Positions 41,050 to 60,861 of a DNA stretch of 64,000 nt are shown in pieces. The notes beneath the pieces were generated by a model. It saw nothing but the letters and a program-made list of their open reading frames with translations, ran no database searches and was not told the origin of the DNA. Each line of letters begins with the position of its first letter. Positions within the stretch are counted from its first letter, which is position 1. Source of the DNA: a virus; the UHGV virus genome UHGV-0211740. One strand, 5' to 3'. The translations under genes and the position numbers were made by a program.

Positions 41050-41477
41050 TGAGTATCATACATCCTCGTTTAGTAGACTGGCAAGAAAGATTGTTGAAGG
41101 TGTTTGACGAAGAGTCAGCCGTTCCGTTCGAGTGGGGATTTCACGATTGTTGCACTTTTGCAGCCAAGTGTGTTGATGCTCAGTATGGAACAGATATTCT
41201 CTCTAACTTCGAAGGCACGTACAAAACAGAACTGGAAAGTAAGAGATGGTGTATGTTACATTTCAAAACCACCAACTTGCCTACCATTTTTGATCTCTTT
41301 ATGACCAGACTGGATACTCCTAAACAGGTTCAGCGTGGAGATATTGTTATTTTCAAAGGTCTGAACGGACTTACCGCTGGCGTGTTTTGGAACAATCAGA
41401 TTTGGTCAAAAGGTGATAAAGGGGTCTTTATGTTTGACATGAAAGATTCTATCGTTGTTGATGTCTGGAGGTATTAA
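41049..41477 (+). CDS. putative tail-associated NlpC/P60-like peptidase
   Basis: 142 aa; candidate catalytic Cys context GFHDCCTFAAKCV resembles the G-x-D-C motif of NlpC/P60 peptidases; position directly upstream of the J-like gene. Confidence 0.4.
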   Translation: MSIIHPRLVDWQERLLKVFDEESAVPFEWGFHDCCTFAAKCVDAQYGTDILSNFEGTYKTELESKRWCMLHFKTTNLPTIFDLFMTRLDTPKQVQRGDIVIFKGLNGLTAGVFWNNQIWSKGDKGVFMFDMKDSIVVDVWRY

Positions 41478-44400
41478 TGCCAATTGCAATGATTGATAAC
41501 ATCGTTGCTTCTGCAAGATCTTCGAGCTATGACTGGAACGCATCCAAGGCGGCTCTGGCTGACAGTCTGAACACTGTTACCACCAGAACTCTGGATAAGA
41601 TTTTTGAGGGCAACAAATCTTACAGAGGCCAGCAAGATAGACAAAAGCTTCTCAGATCTTCAGCTGCACCTTGTTCTGTAGTGTATGGGAAGACACGCAC
41701 ATCGGGATTGCTTGCGTTTTTGGAGCAGGACAGGGACAGAACCCTCCATTGTGCCATTGTTCTTGCCAATCACCCTCTGGAAGGTGTAGAAGACATACTT
41801 ATCGACGGTAATCCTATTTCTTCATATGGAGATTTGGTATCGTGGGAGCTGCATAACGACAGAAAAACATCTGATCCTTTCATGGGGACACACTGCCCTT
41901 CGTGGTCACCAGACATGATAGGTAGAGGGATCAGTTGGCTGCGTGCCAGCTTCAAATTTGACCCTAACAAGTTTCCTTTTGGGTTGCCAAACGTTACACT
42001 CGTCAAGGTTGGTAAAAAATGCTATGATCCTCGCATCAGCAAAGAGGTGTATACCAATAACGCGGCCTTGGTGATTCTGGACTATTTAAGAACATACCTT
42101 AAATGTCCTGACGAAACCATCAACTGGGAGTCCTTCAAGGAAGCTGCCAACATATGTGACGAGGCTGTAAGAAACGCTGACGGAACCAGTGAGCGTCGTT
42201 ACACCATCAATGGTGAGTTCGACATGGATGAGGCTCCAGCAAGCATCATGGCAGAAATGCTGAAAGCCTGTGGTGCAGATCTTAGCTATGTGGCTGGTAA
42301 GTATGGATTGCTGGTTGGGGCCTATTATGGACCAGCAACAATGACACTGGGTGAGGATTGTGTTTGTGGTGAAGTCAAGATCTATCCAGAAGCTTCCTTT
42401 GACAAAAGATCCAACACAATAACTGGTAGATTCACCAGTCCTGCCAAAGGATACTCTGAAACAGATTTCCCATCAGTGTTTGTTCCAGAGTGGATAGAGA
42501 AGGATGGGGAAAGAAAGATAATCGATATAGATTATCGTTTTGTCACCAGTCCTTATCAGGCCCAGCGTGTTTCCGCGATATTCTTAAGACGTGCCAGAGC
42601 TGGTAGGATTATTGAAGTCACGTGCAATATGCGTGGTTTTAAATTTAAGCCTGGACGCTACGTCACAATGAACCTCCCAAGTATTGGCATAGTAGGCCAA
42701 GAGATGAGAGTTCTTGAGTGGGAGTTCACTAAAAAGGGCGGTGTTAAGGTAAAACTTCGTCAAGATGCGAAAGAGTGGAATGATGCCACAGGTCAACTTC
42801 CTGACTCTGGTGATGTAGATATTCCTGTGTCCCCATCTGGTGTGGCTCAACCGCAAAACTTCAGATTCTCTGTTCTTCAAGCTGGAGAAGTAACTCATGG
42901 TGTTTTAGCTTGGGACAACGTTGGGACTTACGCTCAAAACATTGTGCAGGTCAGGAAAAATGGAGAGATTGTCTGGACAGCACAGACAGTTGAGCAGTTT
43001 GTCCGTGTTGAAGGTCTGACTAAAGGGTCTTACACAGCCACTGTTGTTGCAACATCTTATAAAGGCGGTGTATCTCCAGAAGCGTACTGTGAGTTTAACA
43101 TTCAGGCACCTGAGGCTCCGGTTTCTGTAGAAGTTAAGCAGGGATATTTTGCTATCACCTTAATTCCGCACAGCAGGGATTTAGCAAGTGTCAGCACCCA
43201 GTATGACTTTTGGACATCCGGCATGACAAGGTTGCCTGACACTAGTGATGCAACCGTCACTTCAAAAGCTACTCGCATGGGTGTTGGTTCAACTTGGACA
43301 TCTGAAGGTCTGCAGAACGATAAGGTTTATTATTGGTATATTCGAACCACAAACGCTTTTGGTAGTTCTCAGTTTGTAGAGTGTGCTGCACGCTGCTATA
43401 CCTCTATTGAAGATTTGATGCCTCAGATAGATGCTGAATTTAAAAAGACAGAGACTTATAAAGAGTTGATGAGCACTTTAGATTCTTCTATCGAAGAGGT
43501 TGAAAATCGGGTCACAGAACTTAACAAGTACATGGATGGTAGAGTTGATGAAGCTTTTGATCACATGGAAAGTGAGTTCTCTAGAGTAGACAAGCTGTAT
43601 GCTCAGCTGGGAGATAGGGTAGGGGTATTCATCCAAGAAACCAGTGAAAACTTCCAAGATGTTAATGGAACGCTTACCGCTCTCGACCAGAAACTGGTAG
43701 CCACTCAGAACAAGTTTACAGATGATCTCTCTAAAGAAAGTGGCAAGCTAACCTCTCTGATCCAGACCACTAACAAAGCTACAACTGATCTTCTTAATAA
43801 GAAAACAGAAGCTTTGGACGAGAAGATTGTTTCGACCAGGGGCGAGTTGGAAGATGCTTTAGCACAGGAAAGCGCTGAGCTGAACTCTCTGATTGTATCT
43901 ACCAATAAAACGACTACAGATCTCCTTAATCAGAAAACCGAGGCACTGGACAATAAGCTGACGGCAACGAAAGGTGAGTTGACCAACAACTTGAATAATG
44001 AGAGTGCTAAACTGTCGTCGTTGATTGAGACAACCAACAAATCCACCACTGATCTTCTTAACAAGAAAACAGATGCGTTGGATGAAAAACTGGTTGCTGC
44101 ACAGGGTGAGCTAACTGAGCAGATTGGCGATGTTGAAAAAGGTTATCTGGCTGGAGATAAGAGCCTAGAAGGTAAGTTGAATACTCAGAGATCTGAGTTG
44201 GATGCAAGCATTCTGAGTACTAATCAGGCTACTGTGGATTTGCTGAATAGAACTTCTCAGACTCTTGACCAGAAGATTAGCCAGACTAACGCCACGGTAT
44301 CTAAAAACTACACCACTCTAGATGGCAAGATCAACACCACCAAATCTGATCTCAATACGTTGATCTCTACCACCAACAAGGCCACAACGGACCTGCTGAA

Positions 44401-45622
44401 TCAGAAAACTGCAGCCTTATCTGAACAATTAACCTCTGCTAAAGGGCAGATTACAACCAACACCAATAATATTACGGGGTTGGATAATAAGCTTACCCAA
44501 GCTAAGAAAGATTTGTCTGCAAATATTTCTGAAACTAATCAGGCCACTGTTGACCTGATTAACGGAACAGCGTCAGCTATTCGTCAAGAACTTGCTGTTG
44601 CTAAGCAGGAGATCATTGATGATGTTGGAGATGTGTCCGAGATCAGGGCTGCAGTAGCTACAACATCTAAGGCTGTAACCGACTTAGAGGGCAAAGTAAA
44701 CGCTCAGTGGGGCACAAAAATACAGGTAGACTCCGCAGGGAATAAATATGTTGCAGGTATCCAGTTGGGGATGGAAGGGTCTGGGGGCCAAGTTCAATCC
44801 TACTTCATGGTTAGTGCAAACAATTTTGCGGTATATAACCCTGGGAATGGAACAGCAACCCTTGCCTTTGCAATCAAGAACAACCAGGCGTTCTTGAAAG
44901 ATGCCTTCATAGAGAATGGCACAATCTCTTCAGCCAAGATTGCACAAGAGATTTCGTCAAACAACTACGATGGCAACGGGTACCACAAATACGGCTGGTA
45001 TATTAACAAGAATGGGCACGCCCAGTTTATGGATGTGTGGGTGAAAGGCAACATCAACGCTAGTGCAGGTAACTTCACAGGAGCAGTTAACGCCACCAGC
45101 GGTACCTTCCGTGGCGATGTTTATGCCAACAACGGTAGTTTTAGAGGTACCATAGACGCAACAGGTGGTACTTTCCGTGGGCGTGTAGAAGCTTCTGTTA
45201 TCCGTGCCAACCAGTTTGAAGGTGCAATTGTTGCACACAGGACCTATGGTGACTGTCCTCCGGTATATAACTCCCAGCAGAGGGTTTGCCGCTGGAAATG
45301 GAGATATGTGGATAACGTGCAAGGCCAAGGTAAGAACGTAACATTCTTCTTTAAACTGAACGGTACGCTCGCCAGCTCCCAGCTTAACGTTTGGATAGCC
45401 GGACATCAAATCCTTGCAGGTAAGAAGTACGGAAACGACAACAACGGCATGTGTGCGGTAGGGATAACGGGTCTAGGTGAACAGACCATAGACATTATCG
45501 TTGAAATTTACACACCATGGTCAACGTCAAGCGTGACAGGAGTTACAATATCTTGTCCTACTGTTGTGGTGAGCCGATCCAACTCAAGTTTCCAAGGCCC
45601 TTGGAACGAGTCTCACGACTAA
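41477..45622 (+). CDS. tail tip / central fibre protein, lambda J-like (host specificity protein family)
   Basis: 1381 aa; several blocks match lambda gpJ from memory (GYFAITLIPH, WYIRTTNAFGSSQFVE, KYVAGIQLGMEGSGGQVQSYFMVSANNFAVYNP...AFLKDAFI); central run of about ten degenerate repeats (TTNK.TTDLLN.KTEALD.KL). Confidence 0.75.
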   Translation: MPIAMIDNIVASARSSSYDWNASKAALADSLNTVTTRTLDKIFEGNKSYRGQQDRQKLLRSSAAPCSVVYGKTRTSGLLAFLEQDRDRTLHCAIVLANHPLEGVEDILIDGNPISSYGDLVSWELHNDRKTSDPFMGTHCPSWSPDMIGRGISWLRASFKFDPNKFPFGLPNVTLVKVGKKCYDPRISKEVYTNNAALVILDYLRTYLKCPDETINWESFKEAANICDEAVRNADGTSERRYTINGEFDMDEAPASIMAEMLKACGADLSYVAGKYGLLVGAYYGPATMTLGEDCVCGEVKIYPEASFDKRSNTITGRFTSPAKGYSETDFPSVFVPEWIEKDGERKIIDIDYRFVTSPYQAQRVSAIFLRRARAGRIIEVTCNMRGFKFKPGRYVTMNLPSIGIVGQEMRVLEWEFTKKGGVKVKLRQDAKEWNDATGQLPDSGDVDIPVSPSGVAQPQNFRFSVLQAGEVTHGVLAWDNVGTYAQNIVQVRKNGEIVWTAQTVEQFVRVEGLTKGSYTATVVATSYKGGVSPEAYCEFNIQAPEAPVSVEVKQGYFAITLIPHSRDLASVSTQYDFWTSGMTRLPDTSDATVTSKATRMGVGSTWTSEGLQNDKVYYWYIRTTNAFGSSQFVECAARCYTSIEDLMPQIDAEFKKTETYKELMSTLDSSIEEVENRVTELNKYMDGRVDEAFDHMESEFSRVDKLYAQLGDRVGVFIQETSENFQDVNGTLTALDQKLVATQNKFTDDLSKESGKLTSLIQTTNKATTDLLNKKTEALDEKIVSTRGELEDALAQESAELNSLIVSTNKTTTDLLNQKTEALDNKLTATKGELTNNLNNESAKLSSLIETTNKSTTDLLNKKTDALDEKLVAAQGELTEQIGDVEKGYLAGDKSLEGKLNTQRSELDASILSTNQATVDLLNRTSQTLDQKISQTNATVSKNYTTLDGKINTTKSDLNTLISTTNKATTDLLNQKTAALSEQLTSAKGQITTNTNNITGLDNKLTQAKKDLSANISETNQATVDLINGTASAIRQELAVAKQEIIDDVGDVSEIRAAVATTSKAVTDLEGKVNAQWGTKIQVDSAGNKYVAGIQLGMEGSGGQVQSYFMVSANNFAVYNPGNGTATLAFAIKNNQAFLKDAFIENGTISSAKIAQEISSNNYDGNGYHKYGWYINKNGHAQFMDVWVKGNINASAGNFTGAVNATSGTFRGDVYANNGSFRGTIDATGGTFRGRVEASVIRANQFEGAIVAHRTYGDCPPVYNSQQRVCRWKWRYVDNVQGQGKNVTFFFKLNGTLASSQLNVWIAGHQILAGKKYGNDNNGMCAVGITGLGEQTIDIIVEIYTPWSTSSVTGVTISCPTVVVSRSNSSFQGPWNESHD

Positions 45623-47229: not shown

Positions 47230-47916
47230 ATGGCAGAGATTAAGTCGGATGTCAACCACATCCACACTCTGCCAGATTTTGTTCAGGGAGGTCTTGACTA
47301 CCTGCCTGGAGATTTTCTGGCTGAGAAGGTTAATTTGGTCACATTCTTAACCGTGTACCTTAAAAGGTTGGAGGATGTTGATAAGATGCTGGTAGGTTTG
47401 GCTGAAGGAAGATTGCTTAACAATGCCAGCGGAAGATACCTTGACGAGGTAGGAAATCAGCTTGGCATTCTTAGGAACGGGCTTTCAGATGCCGATTTTC
47501 GTGCCACACTAATTATTCAGCAGGCAGCATCCTCAAGGGGTGGGACTAGAGAAGATGTCATCTCCACTTTGCGACAATTGTTCGGAAGAAATAATTTCGA
47601 TACGTGGAAAGGTGACAACTTCAGGTTTGACATAAATATTAGAAAAACTTGCTTTGATATACTGCAGTCTATCGATCAGATCTTAGATATGCTACCGCTG
47701 CCTTGCCATTTGCGGCTTACAGAGTCGCAGGGGCAAGCTTTTGGCTTTGAAGGGGACTCAACAGCTCTCGGTTTCGGATCAGTGTGGGAAGAAAACCAGT
47801 TCGGAGTTGGTGGATTGGCTACTTTATTGTACGTTCCTGACGTAAGACCTGATTGGGACACCACAACCATTTATTGTGAAAGTATTACAGTGAACGCAAC
47901 TAGACAGGAGGGTTAA
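47230..47916 (+). CDS. putative baseplate protein (P2 gpI-like)
   Basis: 228 aa; segment SRGGTREDVISTLRQLFG...W..DNFRFDINI resembles the gpI family block (KGT...V.EW...FRLDI) from memory. Confidence 0.45.
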   Translation: MAEIKSDVNHIHTLPDFVQGGLDYLPGDFLAEKVNLVTFLTVYLKRLEDVDKMLVGLAEGRLLNNASGRYLDEVGNQLGILRNGLSDADFRATLIIQQAASSRGGTREDVISTLRQLFGRNNFDTWKGDNFRFDINIRKTCFDILQSIDQILDMLPLPCHLRLTESQGQAFGFEGDSTALGFGSVWEENQFGVGGLATLLYVPDVRPDWDTTTIYCESITVNATRQEG

Positions 47917-49988
47917 TGGCAACAGCTATTTTTAAACCTTACCGTGATTACTCTACAATGGCTGCACGGTTTCATTACCGCACAGTTCAGGATACTGCCG
48001 TTCCAGGTAGGGATTATGATCATGTTGAGGGAGATGTAACTATTCCGGTTGGAGCAACCAGCATTGAGATCCCAGTAGAAATTGTTGACAAATTGCCCAA
48101 CAGGTTGCCAAGAAGCTTCTTCATGGAGTTTTCATCAGAGTCTCAAGGGGTGATGATCGGGACGCAAAAAGCAAAATGCACAATAGTCTCGGATGAGAAT
48201 CTTGACAGATTATCCTGGGATACTGTTGAGGAGAGAATGTTCCACCCAAGGTATTGGGTTACAACCACTCAACAAACTGAAAGTACCTGTATTGTTGCAG
48301 ATAACAACTGTTGTATTAACCGTTTGGTGTCAAGAACGTATGGGGGTATGGCAGGTTGCATTTGGGAAACAGTTGACAAGTATGACCATTTCGGTATTGG
48401 ATTTGATGATCATTATGAAATGAGAAACACCAAGCTTTGGTTCAGAATGTCAATAAACAACGCCACCAACTTCTCCACCCCTGAAAAGATGATTATGACT
48501 GTGGACCTTGTTGATGGCACAATCATCTATGTTCCTTTAGCTCAATATGCCGCCAGCATTTCAGAAGATAAAAATGTTGCAGAGATTCATATTGACTTTG
48601 AGGATTGCATTGGGATGGACCAGCACAACAACATGATGGGTGTTGATCCTCGGCAGGTGAGAAGGATTCTAATTCCGCTTATGCCTAAAGATTGGGTAAG
48701 CAACAGCACAGACCCAAGGACGGAAAATGTAGAGTGCGAGTTGCGCCTAGACCTGCTTCAGCCAGACACAGGCTGGAAAATGATGCAACTTAACAATATT
48801 CAGGTGAAAGAGCACGACGTCGGGATCTGCACTGCATATGATGATATGTGGAACGTATCACCTTTGAGAGTGTTGAACAATATTAAGCGTTTGGGCTACA
48901 CGGGGATCATAAATCACTATGTTGGGATGAGTCATTACTATGACTACACGTGGACTGGTACTCAATGGTCTATAAACAAAACAGGGGCCTTGAACGCAGC
49001 AGCTTATAAATGGCATGATGACTTTATGTATAATGCCAAACAGCATGGCTTCGAGGTTATGCAATCTGTAAGTTTTGAGCTTTACAGTGATGCCTGCCCG
49101 TTAGAATGGACCCAAAGAGATTGGAATGATAACTATGCTAAAACAGGGTACACCCCTTGCAGCTACCTTCTATCTCCGACCATTGAAGAGGGTATGAATT
49201 TCCTTACGGCAGTGTTTAAGAATTTTGCATCGGCAGCTATGCGAAACAATCTGCCAGTGATTATGCAGATCGGGGAGCCGTGGTGGTGGTTCAACACCGA
49301 CACTCGTAAACCTTGTATTTATGATTATCCTACAAAACAAGCGTTTTATGACGAGACTGGAGAATATGCGCTAGATATTGGAACTATTGACGATCCTAAA
49401 ACTGGCGGGGTTTACGACAAGTATGTAGCATTTTGTCGTGGCAAGCTCGGAGCTCGTATTGCAGCCATTTCAAAAGCAATCAAGGCACACGCTGCATCGG
49501 CTCAGATGACAGCTTTGCTGTTTTTCCCAACCATTATGGAAACCGAGCTTACGCAGAAACTGAACCTTGCTGACCAATATAAAAAGGAAGCAGGAGCTCT
49601 TGATTTCTTCTGCACTGAGTGCTACGATTGGGTGATGCAGGGCGGTATTGAAAAGGCAAAAGAGTCTGTAAACATACCTATCGTTAAGTTAGGTTGGCAA
49701 CCGTCTGAAATACAATACCTTGCAGGGTTCGTTCCTAGTAAAGAGCTTGCTCCGGTATATGGCTACGACCCAACCAGGAATTACCAAGAATTTTTATGGA
49801 GATGTATTTGCGGAAACATGGCAACCATAGAGTATAGATACCCTGAGGTAAAACAGTATGTGTGGGCATACCCACAAGTGATGTCTGATAGTATTACTGT
49901 TACTGCCAGGGAGTCTACTGTGCTTCATATGGGGCAGGTTGCTCTGAAAGGGTATGTAGAAGATGTTGTTCCGCCAGACTTCTCATAA
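47916..49988 (+). CDS. putative tail fibre / baseplate-attached enzyme-like protein
   Basis: 690 aa in the position P2 gpH occupies after J and I; Cys/Trp/Tyr-rich body suggests a globular, possibly enzymatic, domain; assignment is positional. Confidence 0.35.
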   Translation: MATAIFKPYRDYSTMAARFHYRTVQDTAVPGRDYDHVEGDVTIPVGATSIEIPVEIVDKLPNRLPRSFFMEFSSESQGVMIGTQKAKCTIVSDENLDRLSWDTVEERMFHPRYWVTTTQQTESTCIVADNNCCINRLVSRTYGGMAGCIWETVDKYDHFGIGFDDHYEMRNTKLWFRMSINNATNFSTPEKMIMTVDLVDGTIIYVPLAQYAASISEDKNVAEIHIDFEDCIGMDQHNNMMGVDPRQVRRILIPLMPKDWVSNSTDPRTENVECELRLDLLQPDTGWKMMQLNNIQVKEHDVGICTAYDDMWNVSPLRVLNNIKRLGYTGIINHYVGMSHYYDYTWTGTQWSINKTGALNAAAYKWHDDFMYNAKQHGFEVMQSVSFELYSDACPLEWTQRDWNDNYAKTGYTPCSYLLSPTIEEGMNFLTAVFKNFASAAMRNNLPVIMQIGEPWWWFNTDTRKPCIYDYPTKQAFYDETGEYALDIGTIDDPKTGGVYDKYVAFCRGKLGARIAAISKAIKAHAASAQMTALLFFPTIMETELTQKLNLADQYKKEAGALDFFCTECYDWVMQGGIEKAKESVNIPIVKLGWQPSEIQYLAGFVPSKELAPVYGYDPTRNYQEFLWRCICGNMATIEYRYPEVKQYVWAYPQVMSDSITVTARESTVLHMGQVALKGYVEDVVPPDFS

Positions 49989-53386: not shown

Positions 53387-55132
53387 ATGGCGCAAGACAT
53401 GACAAGCTTCGAGCAGGCGGTAGATCAAGTAATTGTGGATTCTGAACGTCTGCACTTGGTTGTCAACGGTAACGCTGTGGATGAAGTTGTCGTAGAGGAT
53501 GGTACCACCATCCCTACGGTACGGAAAGCCATGCTTGACAACCTTTATTTTAAAACGCCACCGATTCCTTGGGCGTACGGGGCATCCACAACAGTTTTTA
53601 ACCAACTTTATGAGTTTAAAGGTGACACAGGTCCTCAGTGGTGGTACGCGCCTGCGGCATCAAAAGCTAATCCGGTTAGAATGCCAGCAGACCCTTCACA
53701 ATCTGCAAACTGGAGATTGTATACCGACTCTGCAGTAATGGCAAAGTACTATGCAAAACTTAACAGCCCGAGGTTTGAAGGTGACCCGCGAGTACCTACA
53801 CCTCCAATGGATGATAAGTCAGAGTCTATAGCAAACACGGAGTTTGTTGTTGACTACGTGGATAGTATATTTGAAGCTATGGAGGGGATGAAAGTTACCG
53901 TAGGTTCTTTGGTGGTAAAAGGTCTTTCAGAGCTTGCCAATACCATAGTTGGAGGGACTCTTACCTTACAAGGGCCTGTCAACGGAGCAGACTCTACGGC
54001 ACGCTTCAGAAACCTAATCCTCACGGCAAATACTTCTACACTTACCTTCGCTTGGAGCGATCCTAAGCATACGGACTGGAAAAGCACAGAACTGCAGCCT
54101 CACGAGGTGTCAACGCACAGGGTTATAGCTGACACTATAACATCTGGAAAACCTGTGGCAAACAACAATGATGTGCATTTTAATGGTCTTGGAAACAACT
54201 TCTTTGACTATGTGTATATCCGTGGTAATGCCATGAAGGCGGCGACCGAACCAACACTGCAGGTTGATGGTATCACCAGGGTTAAAAACCTGGAAGTGAC
54301 AGGCACTGTTACAGGGATAACCTACTCTGTTGATGGCACCATGATTTACCCTAGCTACATCGAAAGCACAGGGGATGCACTGATCAATGGAGATTTAGAG
54401 GTTGGCGGGGCAATAGTTATTCGTGGTACAGCCTCTGTGCAGAACTTGTCCTTAAACACTCTGAGTGTGAACGAGCGTGCCACTTTTGAAGGAGAAGGAA
54501 TTACAGCCAATAAGGGTGCAATTACCTCCCTGACTGCCACCACTTTAACGGCAACAACTGCAAACGCTGAAAACTGCAACGTTAGCAGAAACTTGCAAGT
54601 TAATGGGGATGTGAGTTTGAACGCAGCAGGGACTGGAACTACCTACCTCCACAACCTTGAAATATCAGGTGCCGTCACCGGGTGGTTGCCAGACTTCTCT
54701 AATGTTAACTTTGTCTGTAATGGTATCAACTCTAGTGGTAAGATAACCACCTCTCAAGGAATTGAGGCTGGTAAAACTATCACTGCCCCTGCTTTCCACG
54801 CAGGAAAAGTAGACTTTGACTTAGAAGAGGTTGATGCATCCAGTGGGACATGGACACCTAACGGGCAGGCCAATATGTATGTTGTCCACGCAAAAGGTGA
54901 CTTTACAATAGGTCAGTGGCCTGGAACATCGGCTGAAGATAAACCTTACCCGTTCACTGCAATCATCTATGTCATTCAGGATGCTGTAGGTCACAACGTG
55001 ACTTTACACGATAAGTATGCCATCTTGTCGGCAACGCCTGTTATTAACAACAAGGCCAACAGCGTCACCTTACTACAATTGACATATTGTGGTGTTGGTG
55101 ATATTGTGGATGTGGTTATTGCACAACGTTAA
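53387..55132 (+). CDS. tail fibre protein
   Basis: 581 aa; fibre-type N-terminal motif (DPRVPTPPMDDKSESIANTEFV) and long Gly/Thr/Asn-rich beta-type repeats. Confidence 0.55.
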   Translation: MAQDMTSFEQAVDQVIVDSERLHLVVNGNAVDEVVVEDGTTIPTVRKAMLDNLYFKTPPIPWAYGASTTVFNQLYEFKGDTGPQWWYAPAASKANPVRMPADPSQSANWRLYTDSAVMAKYYAKLNSPRFEGDPRVPTPPMDDKSESIANTEFVVDYVDSIFEAMEGMKVTVGSLVVKGLSELANTIVGGTLTLQGPVNGADSTARFRNLILTANTSTLTFAWSDPKHTDWKSTELQPHEVSTHRVIADTITSGKPVANNNDVHFNGLGNNFFDYVYIRGNAMKAATEPTLQVDGITRVKNLEVTGTVTGITYSVDGTMIYPSYIESTGDALINGDLEVGGAIVIRGTASVQNLSLNTLSVNERATFEGEGITANKGAITSLTATTLTATTANAENCNVSRNLQVNGDVSLNAAGTGTTYLHNLEISGAVTGWLPDFSNVNFVCNGINSSGKITTSQGIEAGKTITAPAFHAGKVDFDLEEVDASSGTWTPNGQANMYVVHAKGDFTIGQWPGTSAEDKPYPFTAIIYVIQDAVGHNVTLHDKYAILSATPVINNKANSVTLLQLTYCGVGDIVDVVIAQR

Positions 55133-55141
55133 TATATCTGA

Positions 55142-55166
55142 CCGCTCCTGACGGGGCGGTTTTCTT
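55142..55166 (+). terminator. terminator-like hairpin
   Basis: CCGCTCC-TGAC-GGGGCGG hairpin then TTTTCTT. Confidence 0.45.
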
Positions 55167-55180
55167 ATCTGGAGAACACA

Positions 55181-58100
55181 ATGCTTCCAATCCCTTTGCT
55201 AAAACTTGGTCGTCATTTCCTCGATAAGAGGGGTGGAGTTAAGGAACTTGCTGTTCTGTCATACCCAATAGACAACAGTGACGGTACAAGCACTACAGTA
55301 GCCTATGTAAATAGCTTAGCTATACTTTTTGATAACGGTCAACTCAATATTACAGGTTACAACAGGTTCGGGGAGTGCAGGACTGGAGATCTTGACACGA
55401 TAAACTACCCAAATGAGGCTGCCTGGAACGTTGACCATGTGTGGAGAGCAGACCGTGCGTTTGTGATCCGAACTTTTGATAATCAGTTTTTCTACATCGG
55501 CTGCACTGCAGGGCTTATTGGGTCTGATGCTGCAGGTGGTAATGATGTTTGTGTAAGGGAGTGGACACCTCTTCCTGAACAGATTGTTAAAGGATTGCAC
55601 CTTGACACCCACCCAGAGCGCCTTGTTGAGGTGATGGGCGGTATTAACAACACCGTCTGGGTTATGGCAGAGGCAGAAGGCACTGGCATTTTACACCTGT
55701 ACGGATCTGGTAACAACACCTACGGATCTTTGCATGTGGATAAAAACCAGCATGCAACCCCTGTAAAGATTGGTGAAACATCGGAAAATCCTGAAACAGG
55801 TCCTTGGAAAAACCCAAGCATCAACTGTGAGGTGCATGATAACTCTGTTATTTTCGGCGGTCCTAGAGGTTTCTGGATTGCGGGATACGACTTTCTGAGA
55901 AACAACAGCAGAAACGACCTTGTTTGGCCTCCTGCTCAGATTACCCGTGACGATTTGAGAGGTATTCCTGCAGATGAGGAGTGGAAAGGGTTCATGTGCG
56001 GTCCGAACGGGGCAGTGGTTGTAACACAAAGAATGCACAGACCTGATGACCAGCAACTTGTTAACGTATTCTACGGGCAAAACATCTGGGGAGATGATAC
56101 ATGGCGTTCCTTAAATCTTACCTACACCCATGAAGTAATAATGGCGCGTGGGTACGGAACAAGCGGCATTTTCTTCAATAATGGCACTAAGCAGTATCGT
56201 GGATTCTCTCGCAACTTATGTAATGATATTGGTGCACAGTCTGCAAACAATAGCCCTAGGGATAATTTTATCCACTATCAAGCCCTTGCCACAGCTAAAT
56301 ATGTTGAGCAAAGACTGCCAGTCAGCTGGACAGAGAGTGTTTATTTCCAGGGCATTCACAGAGAGGGTTTTTTAGGGACCTTTACTGTTGTTAATGGTAA
56401 ACTTTGGTGGTCAGGTATCCCAAGGGGAAGTTTTGCAGGCTCTAATAACTTGTTTGGGGGTAGACTTAATAGTCAAGGGTTCACAGAGGTTCCTGAGAAT
56501 TGGTATAAAAATGTTCCAGTAGACAGTTGGGATATTGAGGATATTTTTGACGTTAACGGTGTTAGCAGCGTTAGCAATATTTACATTGGTGACACGGTCA
56601 AGATGAAATTGAAGCCTCAGCCAGAGGGTGCTACGTTCATTATTGACAAGATTGAACTGGTAAATGCTGCAGGCACGGTTGTTACAGATGCAAATTATCA
56701 ATTCTCCACCAACTGGAACCACGGTGGTGCCAACGAAGTTATTGTTACCCAGTATAACAGGAATGTTAACAGACGTGGCCTGTACTCTGTAAAAATAACC
56801 TATCATGACAAGCATGGCACAGGTAGAACTCACACGACAAGGACTTTGAACTGGAACACCATAGTTCCTGCGTATCCGTCTAACGGTAAGTGGCATACTG
56901 TCGGTAGAAACAAGCAGTTCCATGTTAACGATACTGTGTACTTTGGGCTGAATGGTACTCAGCCTGCAGTAGAAGGGGATACATCGTATATGGTCAGACT
57001 CCATAGAATGGATGCTGGATCAGTAACTTATGATGTTACCCAAGAGATTTATGATCAGCGACGAAATACCTACAATAACTTGGTGCAGACACAGGCCTTA
57101 TGGGAGTTCAACCCCAACGGCAGAGGTGGTAAAATGTTGCAGGTCAACGAACAAAACGGGACATCGTTGACTGTACACGAACATTCAGATCCTTGGCCTG
57201 ATCCTGGAAAACCTCACCCAGGCGCTCGTACACTAAAAATTGTCAGCCATGACGTAGGATATTTCGGAATACGCTGGGAAGCTACGGTAAGATATGCCGA
57301 CGGGACGACAAACAATATTGGGATTACTCTTGGCGGCACCAGTGAGGATAACTCGCTGAAAATTGCCTACACACCCAGAGGCATCTCTATTGACAATATG
57401 GATGTTGTTCGCAATGGTTACGGAGATGTAAACATCAAAGTTACTCTTGGTGAGCATCTCGGCGGAGAGAGGATCATTATGTATGCCTTTGATCATGACC
57501 CGCGAACCAACGGAACTTATGCGAATCAGGCCTGGAGTTACCTGATAAGTGCGCCTGAGCCAAATACTAAAGAATTCTACTACGGTATGAAGCGAGATGT
57601 GTGCAAGAAAACAGGAACACATGACTGGATTGCTATCTGCGTTAAAGATGAGAGAACAGCTTGGGATGAGCCTGTTAACAGATGGTTCATAGGTATTCCC
57701 ACTCGAAGTGATAAATACGTTGAAGAATATATTGTGTGCATGGGTGGCACCAACCTCAATATGTGTTGGAACGAGGATGCAAACAAATACTCTGATTATG
57801 ACTATATGAGGGACTACTCTTGCAATCAATGGTTTAACCAAACCGGGTATGCTAATCGGCAGTCAAGAGTAAACCCTGCAATCTTTACAGATACGCAGGT
57901 TTTCTTGACAAAACAGGCAAACGAGGTTCAGACCTTCAAGAACAACTATGACCCTAACAAGTGGTTCTATAACTGCTATGGGGCATTTTTCTGGGGACCC
58001 GGGGAATTACCTGGTGGTGGCTCTTGTTTTGAGGCTGCAACTTACGCCAGTGACAGATTTATGGGCCAGGTCAAGAAATACAAGATAATTCCAGGGCCTG

Positions 58101-60814
58101 AAACTTTAGGTAACGCTGTCGACCCCTATATCATCATGAGTGATCTAAGATCGAACATGGATGGAACATCCATATCTATGCAAGTTCCGGTAACAAACGG
58201 ATACAAGCGTGTTGTGATGATCATTAAGTGCGATCTGATAGGTAAGCAAGTTCTTGCAGAGAACGGAACTTCCACCCACCTATTTGAGACTGCTCTGCAC
58301 TATCAGTTTGCTGATTCCCCTTTTGCAGGGGATAAGAGAATATCTGACACAGACGCTGTGCGATGCAAGAAATTTATGCTAGGTGGTGGGTGGTGGTGGT
58401 ATGAATTTGACTTAACAGACAAATTCACCGACACGTCTAAAGTAGTGACGGGGCTTCGTCTAGACCTTGGCGAAAACATGCACAAAAGTGTTTGTGATGG
58501 CACCTACGGTGACCCAACAATCTACTTAAAGTATGTCTCTTTTGAGCACCCAGAGGATGTTGTTTATGGTCCAAAACTGAGACTGTTTGGCAATTGGATT
58601 GCTAAAGACAGGGTAGGTATGGGCAAGAAGGTAAGAGGTTTCTTAATGGATGCCGGTACAGAGGACATGCTAGTTAATGCAGTGTGGCCTGAATTACCCG
58701 GAACTCAGTGGAACAACTCCGCTAAATCTATAAACTGGTTCAATATCCACAGGGCTATGTGGACAACCAACTGTTATCTGTGGAAAGAGCTGAATGACGG
58801 CGCTTTCGGGTTCACAGGTGGCAGAAGAATGGCAATCATTTGCTGGACAACGTTGCAAAGATGTTATGAACATGACTACGAGATTGGAGGTAGGGCATGG
58901 AAAAATATTAGGGATAGAATCATAACCAACTTTGCAGATCCTAACGGTGGTGGAGCGTATGGCTTTGACTGCAGCAGGCTCATCCATTTGAACGGATCCT
59001 CTGCCTACAAGAAAGAAGGTTACTCTGGGTCTATGATAGAATGGGGCCTGGTGAAAGATGCTCGCGTGCTGATGGGTCAACAACTTGCTGCTGCAATAGG
59101 TCCTAATGCAGTGCAATCTGTTAAACCTGCGTGGTTTGATATCCCATTGTGGTCATCCGGTACACCAGGGACCGCTGCAATCAACCCGACCACGGGGGAT
59201 CTGGAAATATCTTGGGAGGACTTGAAGCAGGTTGGAGGCTGGGATAAAACAGGGTATCAGGTTCAGTGGTGGAGGGCTGACGGATCTTTAGCTGCTGATG
59301 AGTTTGTTAAGGACAACTTCTACACCATGTCCTCTGCAAAAGCACAGCAACTGTTTGGTCAGGCTACTCCGTCAACGATTACCATGTCCATGTGCTGTAA
59401 AGACAACAGGACTGGAGCTTTGGGGCCAAGGGTTGCTAAAGTTTTCTCAGGTATTAAATGGAATCTCCCTGTTCAAAGTGTTTCATGGAAGCAAATAGGT
59501 GATAACAAGCTACTAGTTACTCCTGCCTGCCAGTTCAACGCAACCCTCAACGTTGATCCGGCTGTTGCAGCAAACTCAGCTAAAGCTTCTGACTTCTCTG
59601 TGTCTAACACTGCCATGGCAGATGTGAGAAAGATTGATACACTGAATGCCAGAATTACCTGTAAAAACACTTACGGCACATTCCAGATCATCAACAACTT
59701 CACAGATACTGATTCTAAGGTAGTGAGGACAGCAAGCCAGACTATGCAGTTGGGAACTCTGGCATACTCTGCCCTGATCACTGAACAATCTCCTACCCTT
59801 CAGGGTGGAGGTGTTGGTAAGTTGATCACAACACCTGTGTGGAAGCCAAATGAGTGGGTTGTGTTTGATTTGACTGTAGACTTCTCCAGTGACAATAACT
59901 GGACATGGGTAAGGAATTGCTTGTCACAGTTGATGGGTGGTCCAAGCTCTGTTAGTGATAGCCACGACTCTACGGACCCGAGCGTGTTCCAGGTGGGTAA
60001 AACTCATCCAGAAACTGGGGCACAGTTGCCTGACAGGAAGTATGCTTTGGTTTGCATCTCCAACGGCAAGGCAGATGTAACCTTCTCAGGGACACACGCA
60101 TATAACGGCACTTACAACTTCTCTAAAAAGTACAGCCTCAAGGCAGGTAACATTGTAGATGAAGTTGGTGCGTTGTATAATCCAGGTAACGGCATAGGGA
60201 TTGTGGGTGGTAAACTGCAGATGCAGGAACCTTCTATTACCCCTTCCAATGTGCCAGGGATTAGAAAGACTTGGGAAAGTAGTAATACTAACATTGCAAC
60301 AGTGGATGCTACCACAGGATTGGTAACATTTAAAGCCCCTGGTAATGTCACTATAAAGTTTGTAGTTACGGATGATGCAGGCCGCAAAACGTCTTCAACA
60401 TCTTTCACTGTAAGACAGATGGCACCTCAGTGGAGAATGTGGATAGGCACAGCAACAAACGGGGCATACCCTAATCCGGCAGGGACTTCTGGTATGAAGA
60501 CTTTCTCTACAAGCAAGCCGATGGAGTACGGCAGCGGTCCTAAGGTAGGGCAGATGGTGTACTTTGGTGCATATATTCCTGAAATTATAGGGCTTCCGAG
60601 AAGTCAGCTTCAGTTGCTGTTTGGGGCTGGTGTTGACGATCTTGCCACTTTCGGGTATAGCGACAACATCGAGGCTGCAAGAAGTTCAGGATGGGTAGGG
60701 TTCAGAATGGAGTCTGGAAAGGAAGGCAGGATTCTAGGGACAGCCTCTATAGGTGTTATGTTCCCTGGTGACCAGCAGTATCGTCTGGGAGCCTACGCAA
60801 CTTTCTCTCTTTAG
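55181..60814 (+). CDS. giant virion-associated protein (putative adhesin/fibre) with beta-propeller-like N-terminus and Ig-like C-terminal region
   Basis: 1877-aa uninterrupted ORF; N-terminal repeats of the type G.N..G.LG (RCC1-like impression); near C-terminus a segment (NTNIATVDATTGLVTFKAPGNVTIKFVVTDDAGRKTSSTSFTVR) resembling bacterial Ig-like group 2 domains. Confidence 0.5.
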   Translation: MLPIPLLKLGRHFLDKRGGVKELAVLSYPIDNSDGTSTTVAYVNSLAILFDNGQLNITGYNRFGECRTGDLDTINYPNEAAWNVDHVWRADRAFVIRTFDNQFFYIGCTAGLIGSDAAGGNDVCVREWTPLPEQIVKGLHLDTHPERLVEVMGGINNTVWVMAEAEGTGILHLYGSGNNTYGSLHVDKNQHATPVKIGETSENPETGPWKNPSINCEVHDNSVIFGGPRGFWIAGYDFLRNNSRNDLVWPPAQITRDDLRGIPADEEWKGFMCGPNGAVVVTQRMHRPDDQQLVNVFYGQNIWGDDTWRSLNLTYTHEVIMARGYGTSGIFFNNGTKQYRGFSRNLCNDIGAQSANNSPRDNFIHYQALATAKYVEQRLPVSWTESVYFQGIHREGFLGTFTVVNGKLWWSGIPRGSFAGSNNLFGGRLNSQGFTEVPENWYKNVPVDSWDIEDIFDVNGVSSVSNIYIGDTVKMKLKPQPEGATFIIDKIELVNAAGTVVTDANYQFSTNWNHGGANEVIVTQYNRNVNRRGLYSVKITYHDKHGTGRTHTTRTLNWNTIVPAYPSNGKWHTVGRNKQFHVNDTVYFGLNGTQPAVEGDTSYMVRLHRMDAGSVTYDVTQEIYDQRRNTYNNLVQTQALWEFNPNGRGGKMLQVNEQNGTSLTVHEHSDPWPDPGKPHPGARTLKIVSHDVGYFGIRWEATVRYADGTTNNIGITLGGTSEDNSLKIAYTPRGISIDNMDVVRNGYGDVNIKVTLGEHLGGERIIMYAFDHDPRTNGTYANQAWSYLISAPEPNTKEFYYGMKRDVCKKTGTHDWIAICVKDERTAWDEPVNRWFIGIPTRSDKYVEEYIVCMGGTNLNMCWNEDANKYSDYDYMRDYSCNQWFNQTGYANRQSRVNPAIFTDTQVFLTKQANEVQTFKNNYDPNKWFYNCYGAFFWGPGELPGGGSCFEAATYASDRFMGQVKKYKIIPGPETLGNAVDPYIIMSDLRSNMDGTSISMQVPVTNGYKRVVMIIKCDLIGKQVLAENGTSTHLFETALHYQFADSPFAGDKRISDTDAVRCKKFMLGGGWWWYEFDLTDKFTDTSKVVTGLRLDLGENMHKSVCDGTYGDPTIYLKYVSFEHPEDVVYGPKLRLFGNWIAKDRVGMGKKVRGFLMDAGTEDMLVNAVWPELPGTQWNNSAKSINWFNIHRAMWTTNCYLWKELNDGAFGFTGGRRMAIICWTTLQRCYEHDYEIGGRAWKNIRDRIITNFADPNGGGAYGFDCSRLIHLNGSSAYKKEGYSGSMIEWGLVKDARVLMGQQLAAAIGPNAVQSVKPAWFDIPLWSSGTPGTAAINPTTGDLEISWEDLKQVGGWDKTGYQVQWWRADGSLAADEFVKDNFYTMSSAKAQQLFGQATPSTITMSMCCKDNRTGALGPRVAKVFSGIKWNLPVQSVSWKQIGDNKLLVTPACQFNATLNVDPAVAANSAKASDFSVSNTAMADVRKIDTLNARITCKNTYGTFQIINNFTDTDSKVVRTASQTMQLGTLAYSALITEQSPTLQGGGVGKLITTPVWKPNEWVVFDLTVDFSSDNNWTWVRNCLSQLMGGPSSVSDSHDSTDPSVFQVGKTHPETGAQLPDRKYALVCISNGKADVTFSGTHAYNGTYNFSKKYSLKAGNIVDEVGALYNPGNGIGIVGGKLQMQEPSITPSNVPGIRKTWESSNTNIATVDATTGLVTFKAPGNVTIKFVVTDDAGRKTSSTSFTVRQMAPQWRMWIGTATNGAYPNPAGTSGMKTFSTSKPMEYGSGPKVGQMVYFGAYIPEIIGLPRSQLQLLFGAGVDDLATFGYSDNIEAARSSGWVGFRMESGKEGRILGTASIGVMFPGDQQYRLGAYATFSL

Positions 60815-60825
60815 CAAGCAGTAAA

Positions 60826-60857
60826 TAAAAAAGGGGCCGTTTGGCCCCTTTCTTTTT
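60826..60857. terminator. bidirectional rho-independent terminator
   Basis: AAAAAAA-GGGGCC-GTTT-GGCCCC-TTTCTTTTT, symmetric A-run and T-run, between convergent genes. Confidence 0.75.
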
Positions 60858-60861
60858 ATAG

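Follow-up and report, generated by a model that had tools for sequence, protein, structure and literature searches.

The rV5-like phages (genus Vequintavirus) rank among the coliphages that are isolated most often and serve in typing and in therapy cocktails, and their broad host range has been attributed to a multi-fibre adsorption apparatus. In rV5, the gene that closes the tail-fibre block encodes gp27, described as a protein of 1878 amino acids (aa) and 208 kDa and listed as 'conserved hypothetical protein, Big_2' (PMC3606486). Its BASEL orthologs bas49_0041 and bas54_0041 (the latter from phage MaxBurger) are annotated 'lateral tail fiber protein with intimin domain'. The slot at the end of the tail-fibre block is common to Vequintavirus, Phapecoctavirus and Seunavirus. 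The gene analysed here occupies this slot in the UHGV virus genome UHGV-0211740, where it forms an open reading frame (ORF) of 1877 codons at positions 55181..60814 of a stretch of 64,000 nucleotides (the window), and it takes up about 4% of the genome. Its giant product is on balance probably a large, low-copy accessory adhesin at the periphery of the tail or baseplate rather than an essential receptor-binding fibre.

Megablast and tblastn searches identify the window as Vequintavirus (rV5/FV3-like coliphage) and find the gene at full length in 108-110 phage records with 90-97% amino-acid identity. The protein matches phrog_15684 from end to end (E=0, 4444 bits, protein 1-1876 against profile 1-1877/1878) and is 94.9% identical to rV5 gp27 (YP_002003529). 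Length, synteny and flanking terminators are alike in rV5 gp27, bas49_0041 and bas54_0041, with 91-97% amino-acid identity over the full length. The only differences from rV5 and MaxBurger are allelic, as the window has a different allele at aa 126-375, and it carries the commoner C-terminal allele of the rV5 gp27 group. The gene is present in essentially every Vequintavirus, and metagenomic homologs reach down to 44% identity, the most distant of them occupying the same syntenic slot in a 123-kb Vequintavirus-like contig. When the N-terminal 460 aa and the C-terminal 287 aa served as queries in word-indexed homolog searches, nothing but near-identical fragments came back, and BLAST found no paralogous domains of the giant protein among the other ORFs of the window. 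The gene is thus already known, being catalogued in >100 genomes and discussed in three papers. What is added here is the RCC1-like shared module at the N-terminus, the family-restricted nature of ~680 residues, and the rejection of the labels 'intimin', 'recently acquired' and, probably, 'trimeric fibre'. The parts of the protein are as follows.

55181..60814, + strand: full coding sequence of 1877 aa with its stop, orthologous to rV5 gp27, bas49_0041, bas54_0041 and PHROG 15684.
55181..55780, + strand: aa 1-200, conserved N-terminal module with RCC1-like blades, proposed as the virion-attachment part; found also in the tail proteins at the syntenic position in Phapecoctavirus and Seunavirus.
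55781..56500, + strand: aa 201-440, rest of the presumed beta-propeller; beta-strand pairs with a predicted local distance difference test score (pLDDT) below 50, a model that is not confident.
56525..57520, + strand: aa 449-780, two immunoglobulin (Ig)-like beta-sandwich domains; AlphaFold2 pLDDT 70-80 at aa 449-565 and weak Bact_surface_Ig-like matches in 12 of 16 homologs.
57521..59560, + strand: aa 781-1460, family-restricted central body, from a profile search and its invariant residues.
58028..58546, + strand: aa 950-1122, predicted beta-sandwich, probably a jelly roll of the carbohydrate-binding module (CBM) or lectin type; AlphaFold2 pLDDT 74-86 and a resemblance to carbohydrate-binding modules.
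59168..60190, + strand: aa 1330-1670, about three Ig/FN3-like domains; AlphaFold2 strands with pLDDT up to 88, Foldseek matches and a weak fn3 match.
60194..60445, + strand: aa 1672-1755, Big_2 bacterial Ig-like domain, the so-called 'intimin domain'; PF02368, pLDDT 80-92.
60446..60811, + strand: aa 1756-1877, C-terminal beta domain, candidate ligand-binding tip with two alleles in the genus; phrog_215.

In the proposed mechanism, the N-terminal ~200 residues, as part of an RCC1-like beta-propeller, would dock the giant protein onto the baseplate or fibre network, and the same module heads proteins of different sizes at the same slot in the sister genera. The remainder would project outward as a string of Ig-like sandwiches combined with a family-specific central body that contains the CBM-like jelly roll. 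At the distal end, Big_2 and the exchangeable C-terminal domain may contact glycans on the surface of particular hosts or in the gut. Expression by read-through of a conserved terminator hairpin just 5' of the gene would keep the dose low. This reading of the protein as a propeller-anchored, Ig-rich adhesin is probable, and it guides the choice of fragments and the knockout phenotypes to look for.

The whole protein is under selection in nature, as indicated by a low ratio of nonsynonymous to synonymous substitution rates (dN/dS 0.05-0.07 against EmilHeitz, rV5 and MaxBurger) across all 1877 codons, together with synonymous divergence that reaches saturation. Between adjacent blocks of 125 codons this synonymous divergence jumps from ~0.01 to saturation in a pattern that differs for each comparison phage, and mosaic recombination has therefore taken place within the gene. 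Discrete alleles are found at two regions, namely aa 126-375 in the propeller, where the alleles among Vequintaviruses are divergent and synonymous divergence is saturated against both rV5 and MaxBurger, and the C-terminal domain (blocks covering aa 1751-1875). Across more distant members of the family, conservation is highest in the N-terminal 450 aa (70-80% identity in homologs that are ~50% identical overall) and lowest in the C-terminal 430 aa (15-35% identity). In an alignment that extends from gp49 to gp27, Maffei et al. described allelic variation in three large fibre genes, very strong in two of them and moderate in the third; because of this extent, the moderately variable gene, which their text does not name, is taken here to be gp27. 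According to a transposon-sequencing preprint, bas54_0041 withstands disruptive insertions when the host is E. coli K-12, and the ortholog is therefore dispensable for K-12 infection and for making infective virions. In the same preprint, different fibre genes turn conditionally essential on clinical isolates. Strong purifying selection on a gene that is nevertheless unneeded on K-12 implies that it must pay off on other hosts or in the gut.

A possible recent acquisition, as the sequence-only reading had put forward, is not supported by these relationships. GC content (0.458), GC content at third codon positions (0.453) and codon usage are indistinguishable from those of the neighbours, with a codon-usage distance of 0.043 from the pool of neighbouring genes, a value as small as for any other gene of the window. 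This composition and the phylogenetic distribution, including the genus-wide presence, the 44% homolog and the shorter sister-genus gene in the same slot, lead to the rejection of that suggestion.

Two groups of database records should be read with care. A total of 15-16 'Campylobacter phage' records (MG065644-MG065690, host C. jejuni) have the gene at ~91-92% nucleotide identity. As these records resemble ordinary E. coli Vequintaviruses of ~135-143 kb, the host label is probably wrong or the phages are contaminants. Fragments and full copies of the giant protein are also filed under Eggerthella lenta and E. coli strains, probably through phage contamination of bacterial assemblies.

A relationship outside the family is seen at the N-terminus. 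Residues 1-200 share 40% identity (E=1e-27) with the N-terminus of the 890-aa Phapecoctavirus 'tail protein' that ends its tail block (ESCO5 gp226 / phAPEC8; phrog_11922), and they also match the 573-aa Seunavirus equivalent (SPLA5a). Profile-profile comparison with ESCO5, SPLA5a and Csp-D17 gave a probability of 99.7% and E=3e-25 for aa 1-200 and no match beyond, and past aa ~200 homology to the Phapecoctavirus and Seunavirus proteins is undetectable except for the generic Big_2. As in the window, the Phapecoctavirus and SPLA5a genes are the last of their tail block before a strand switch, and in their products the homologous N-terminus of ~200 residues is followed by Big_2 Ig-like domains. 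Unlike the giant protein, these relatives are two to three times shorter and do not have the 781-1460 central body or most of the Ig array.

It is through these shorter proteins that the N-terminal module can be connected to RCC1. They match PF25390 (E=8e-11) and phrog_4219, 'regulator of chromosome condensation' (E=1e-34 to 1e-40), and the SPLA5a protein passes the PF00415 gathering score (28.3 bits vs 21.7). In the giant family itself, 12 of 16 members show weak PF25390 matches at aa ~52-202 (E=1e-4 to 3e-3), far under the 150-bit cut-off. The window protein falls below every RCC1 threshold (RCC1_2 E=0.11, 12.7 bits vs a cut-off of 22) and has no direct match to phrog_4219, and neither hhalign of the two propeller halves nor self-BLAST gave significant internal repeats. 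For these reasons the presumed RCC1-like nature of the N-terminus is supported by transitive homology and not directly; the blades noticed in the sequence-only reading are retained on the strength of the sister-genus proteins, whereas their repeat character did not reach significance. An RCC1-like beta-propeller is also present in the Septuagintavirus proteins W70_237-239 (phrog_4219), which were found in virions by mass spectrometry (MS), although these are single-domain proteins of ~40 kDa encoded elsewhere in the genome and in this differ from the giant protein.

Beyond the presumed propeller, the architecture includes many Ig-like sandwiches. Big_2 (PF02368) is matched at aa 1685-1732 with 33.0 bits, over a gathering score of 22.8 bits, which confirms the Ig-like segment that had been noticed near the C-terminus. 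The presumed propeller, the Ig-like sandwiches, the probable CBM-like jelly roll and Big_2 likewise agree with the earlier suggestion of a multidomain, adhesin-like architecture. In Foldseek searches the Ig array matched cadherin, S-layer and NUP210 Ig arrays, and against the PDB only generic Ig arrays were recovered. Fold matches of the giant protein include intimin, lambda gpV, T5 pb6 and S-layer proteins, and bead-on-string Ig-like sandwiches of this kind are shared by bacterial Big_2 adhesins (intimin/invasin, S-layer Sap/SbsC) and by phage Ig proteins. As a family assignment 'intimin' was rejected (NF033627 intimin_all, 21.4 bits vs a cut-off of 1400). The full architecture of intimin/invasin, with LysM, an outer-membrane beta-barrel, a Big_1/Big_2 array and a C-type-lectin tip, is not found in the giant protein, and intimin chains in the PDB align over just 39 residues of one Ig domain.

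The BASEL label implies a classical trimeric lateral tail fibre, belonging to one of three lateral fibre sets. Such a fibre would fit the location in the fibre locus and the annotation, and it would also account for distal allelic variation, which is typical of fibre tips, and for K-12 dispensability, which is common to other fibre genes. However, searches of Pfam, PHROG and the predicted structure detected no coiled coil, beta-helix, collagen-like or S74 intramolecular-chaperone segment, and no chaperone gene is adjacent. The predicted structure instead consists of a propeller, separate beta-sandwiches and short helices, the longest of 28 residues, and fold searches liken this arrangement to monomeric bead-on-string adhesins and S-layer proteins. 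With the likeness to intimin confined to a single Ig domain and no density assigned to the protein in the text on the Bas49/Bas54 baseplates discussed below, a trimeric fibre seems unlikely.

The central body at aa 781-1460 distinguishes the giant protein from its shorter relatives. It comprises a Cys/Trp-rich part (781-950), the presumed jelly-roll sandwich (950-1122), a helical part of low confidence (1130-1320) and the first of the FN3/Ig-like domains. Cysteines are concentrated at aa 800-950 (5 per 100) and 1150-1300 and are missing at 351-750 and 1651-1877, and tryptophan reaches its maximum of 7 per 100 at aa 1151-1250, so that the Cys/Trp-rich centre described from the sequence is borne out. 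Many acidic, Trp and Cys residues in this region are invariant, for example in GTEDMLV, SINWFNxHRAMW, EIGGRxW and MIEWG. An exhaustive hidden Markov model search of 1.84 billion representative proteins with aa 781-1460 found the protein's own family only, and the same profile had no match among PDB sequences even at E<=10. No Pfam, NCBIfam or other PHROG family matched the central body, and segment-wise scans of these three collections added nothing for aa 441-1340. AlphaFold2 was run on aa 1-820 and aa 771-1877 with a 16-sequence family alignment and gave mean pLDDT values of 48 and 52. The usable portions of these models are limited to the Ig-like domains, the 950-1122 sandwich and some of the first blades; neither the helical central parts (pLDDT below 50) nor most of the presumed propeller can be interpreted.

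Alternatively, aa 781-1320 could form a novel catalytic domain that degrades glycans or cell walls and is placed between carbohydrate-binding and Ig-like modules, which would make the protein a virion-borne enzyme. The strong conservation of the region with its many invariant Asp, Glu, Trp and Cys residues would suit such a function, as would the CBM-like sandwich, which many glycanases also possess. Neighbouring fibre genes do encode glycosidase or deacetylase domains, and an enzyme would fit the 'Swiss-army-knife' collection of depolymerising fibres that these phages carry. Yet the giant protein shows no similarity to any enzyme family in Pfam, NCBIfam, PDB or PHROG, and the lack of a single homolog outside the family among the 1.84 billion representatives would be unusual for an enzyme fold; in the helical parts, a pLDDT below 50 leaves active-site geometry unreadable. 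A catalytic role is thus improbable. There is a small but appreciable chance that the central body is a new fold or a new machine for processing or binding glycans, carried within a monomeric giant adhesin that is docked to the myovirus baseplate via the RCC1-like propeller. If so, the protein would represent a kind of tail appendage separate from trimeric fibres and spikes, one that confers host range conditionally or lets the phage adhere in its environment.

Over its C-terminal 285 aa the protein matches phrog_215, which is described as 'structural protein with Ig domain' and placed in the category head and packaging; aa 1756-1877 match the distal part of that profile (positions 301-458) with E=1.6e-17. 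This C-terminal domain is 59% identical to that of MaxBurger, compared with 93-100% just upstream, and a query with aa 1590-1877 (288 aa) separates 74 records at >=94% from 37 records at ~78%. In precomputed annotation of the homologs, PF26918 is given for the C-terminal part beside Big_2, so that the domain may already bear a Pfam name.

T4 Hoc, the C-terminal domain of lambda gpV and T5 pb6 are accessory in phages, with surface-exposed Ig-like domains that laboratory growth does not require, and Fraser et al. are said to have noted in 2006 that Ig-like domains in phages typically occur on structural proteins. Perhaps, then, the giant protein is a Hoc-like decoration or environment-adherence protein, whose Ig-like domains hold the phage in mucus or on particles, possibly away from the baseplate. 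Big_2 together with several more Ig-like sandwiches in a non-essential protein corresponds to this type, as do the phrog_215 category, the combination of laboratory dispensability with strong purifying selection, and the origin of these phages from gut or sewage. The giant protein is much larger than Hoc and begins with a presumed propeller. Its gene lies in the tail-fibre block rather than the head block, which argues against attachment to the capsid. The N-terminal module is moreover shared with proteins classed as tail proteins (phrog_11922), and the low apparent abundance in rV5 MS, compared with 85% coverage of the head decoration protein gp61, points away from a capsid-wide decoration. 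A Hoc-like protein of this kind is distinctly unlikely, although adherence in the Hoc manner and the role of an accessory adhesin are not mutually exclusive.

The preferred reading of a tail-associated accessory adhesin implies presence in the virion. In the MS table for rV5 virions, protein 27 appears with 3 peptides and 3.1% coverage (PMC3606486, Additional file 5). Indirect support for a structural role comes from the position in the operon, from the related phage W70, where RCC1-like phrog_4219 proteins are abundant in virions (141-233 spectra), and from Ig-like domains as typical elements of structural phage proteins. The W70 proteins, though indirect, weigh more than the rV5 peptides. 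Several observations weigh on the other side. The peptides of rV5 protein 27 are non- or semi-tryptic with marginal scores, like those behind the implausible 'detection' of rIIA, and the rV5 authors kept gp27 as a 'conserved hypothetical protein' and did not flag it as MS-supported (PMC3606486). The rV5 MS data are therefore weak evidence, and presence in the virion, which the sequence-only reading had also proposed, is not firmly established by them. Low-resolution cryo-electron microscopy (cryo-EM) of the Bas49 and Bas54 baseplates resolved three fibres of nine annotated fibre proteins, and its text assigns no fibre to a gp27-type protein. Lastly, the allelic variability at aa 126-375 lies within the propeller, which could therefore be a binding surface and not an anchor only.

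A late-expressed non-structural protein that stays out of the virion is very improbable: the marginal MS evidence, the dispensability for infective virions and the unassigned cryo-EM density would all allow it, but the gene has the position and orientation of the late structural operon, Ig-like and RCC1-like modules occur in virion proteins of this phage group, and no signal peptide, transmembrane segment or enzyme signature was found in the protein. Apart from this question, the low-coverage rV5 identifications (proteins 27, 1 = rIIA, and 228) all rest on non-tryptic peptides of marginal score, and it is likely that some of the published rV5 'virion proteome' represents noise.

The genomic setting agrees with the sequence-only description of an uninterrupted 5.6-kb ORF of 1877 aa that belongs to the structural module and stands after the last fibre gene and before a bidirectional terminator. 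According to the ORF list, a single unbroken ORF runs from an ATG at 55181 to 60814 on the + strand. It is the final + strand gene of a long co-oriented block, the late structural and tail-fibre block, and is preceded by the gp28-type fibre gene at 53387..55132. Minus-strand genes extend from 60.86 kb onward, and the GC skew changes sign at about 60-62 kb. The rV5 gp27 group occupies the same position, closing the tail-fibre block after a gp28-type gene and before a bidirectional terminator and strand switch. Antisense ORFs within the giant gene are without support. The elements that flank the gene are the following.

55140..55170, + strand: intrinsic-terminator-like hairpin and T tract, 9-bp stem with 6 GC pairs, corresponding to rV5 terminator t028.
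55171..55174, + strand: ribosome-binding site GGAG, 7 nt 5' of the ATG and invariant in 5 aligned relatives.
60826..60858, both directions: bidirectional intrinsic terminator that ends both the structural block of the + strand and the block converging on it from the - strand, corresponding to rV5 t027/t026.

Downstream, the terminator consists of a GC-rich hairpin (60830-60851) between an A run and a T run, and the same site in rV5 is annotated with terminators on both strands. The upstream hairpin sits between the fibre gene, whose stop is at 55132, and the ribosome-binding site. It is kept in the 44%-identical relative (contig L007, 7965-7995) with compensatory pair changes (A-T to G-C, G-C to T-A and T.G to T-A), and this conservation suggests a selected attenuator that would hold the giant protein at a low dose. 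Between the hairpin and the ATG, no late promoter was predicted. With a conserved terminator 5' of the gene and no such promoter, expression would probably depend on read-through, which the hairpin probably attenuates, and the dose of the protein would be reduced. The best sigma-70-like match of the region (55079-55107, TTGACA-17-TATTGT with an extended -10 TG, 10/12) falls within the 3'-terminal part of the upstream fibre gene, directly 5' of the hairpin. Sigma-70-like sites in the region are not above chance, with 9 found against 10.1 expected.

Two further genes of the window deserve mention. At 47916-49988, the 690-aa ortholog of gp34 matches the TIM-barrel of the phage N4 non-contractile tail sheath (PF23845, E=5e-80), as well as the N-terminal domain of that sheath and a Calx-beta domain. 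Maffei et al. linked the gp34-type deacetylase fibre to recognition of enterobacterial common antigen (ECA). At 41477-45622, a protein of 1381 aa has Ig domains of the lambda-J type together with a 'Phage_Tail_Tip' domain (E=5e-39); as it is ~100 aa longer than rV5 gp37 (1279 aa), its gene is one of the strongly allelic fibre genes.

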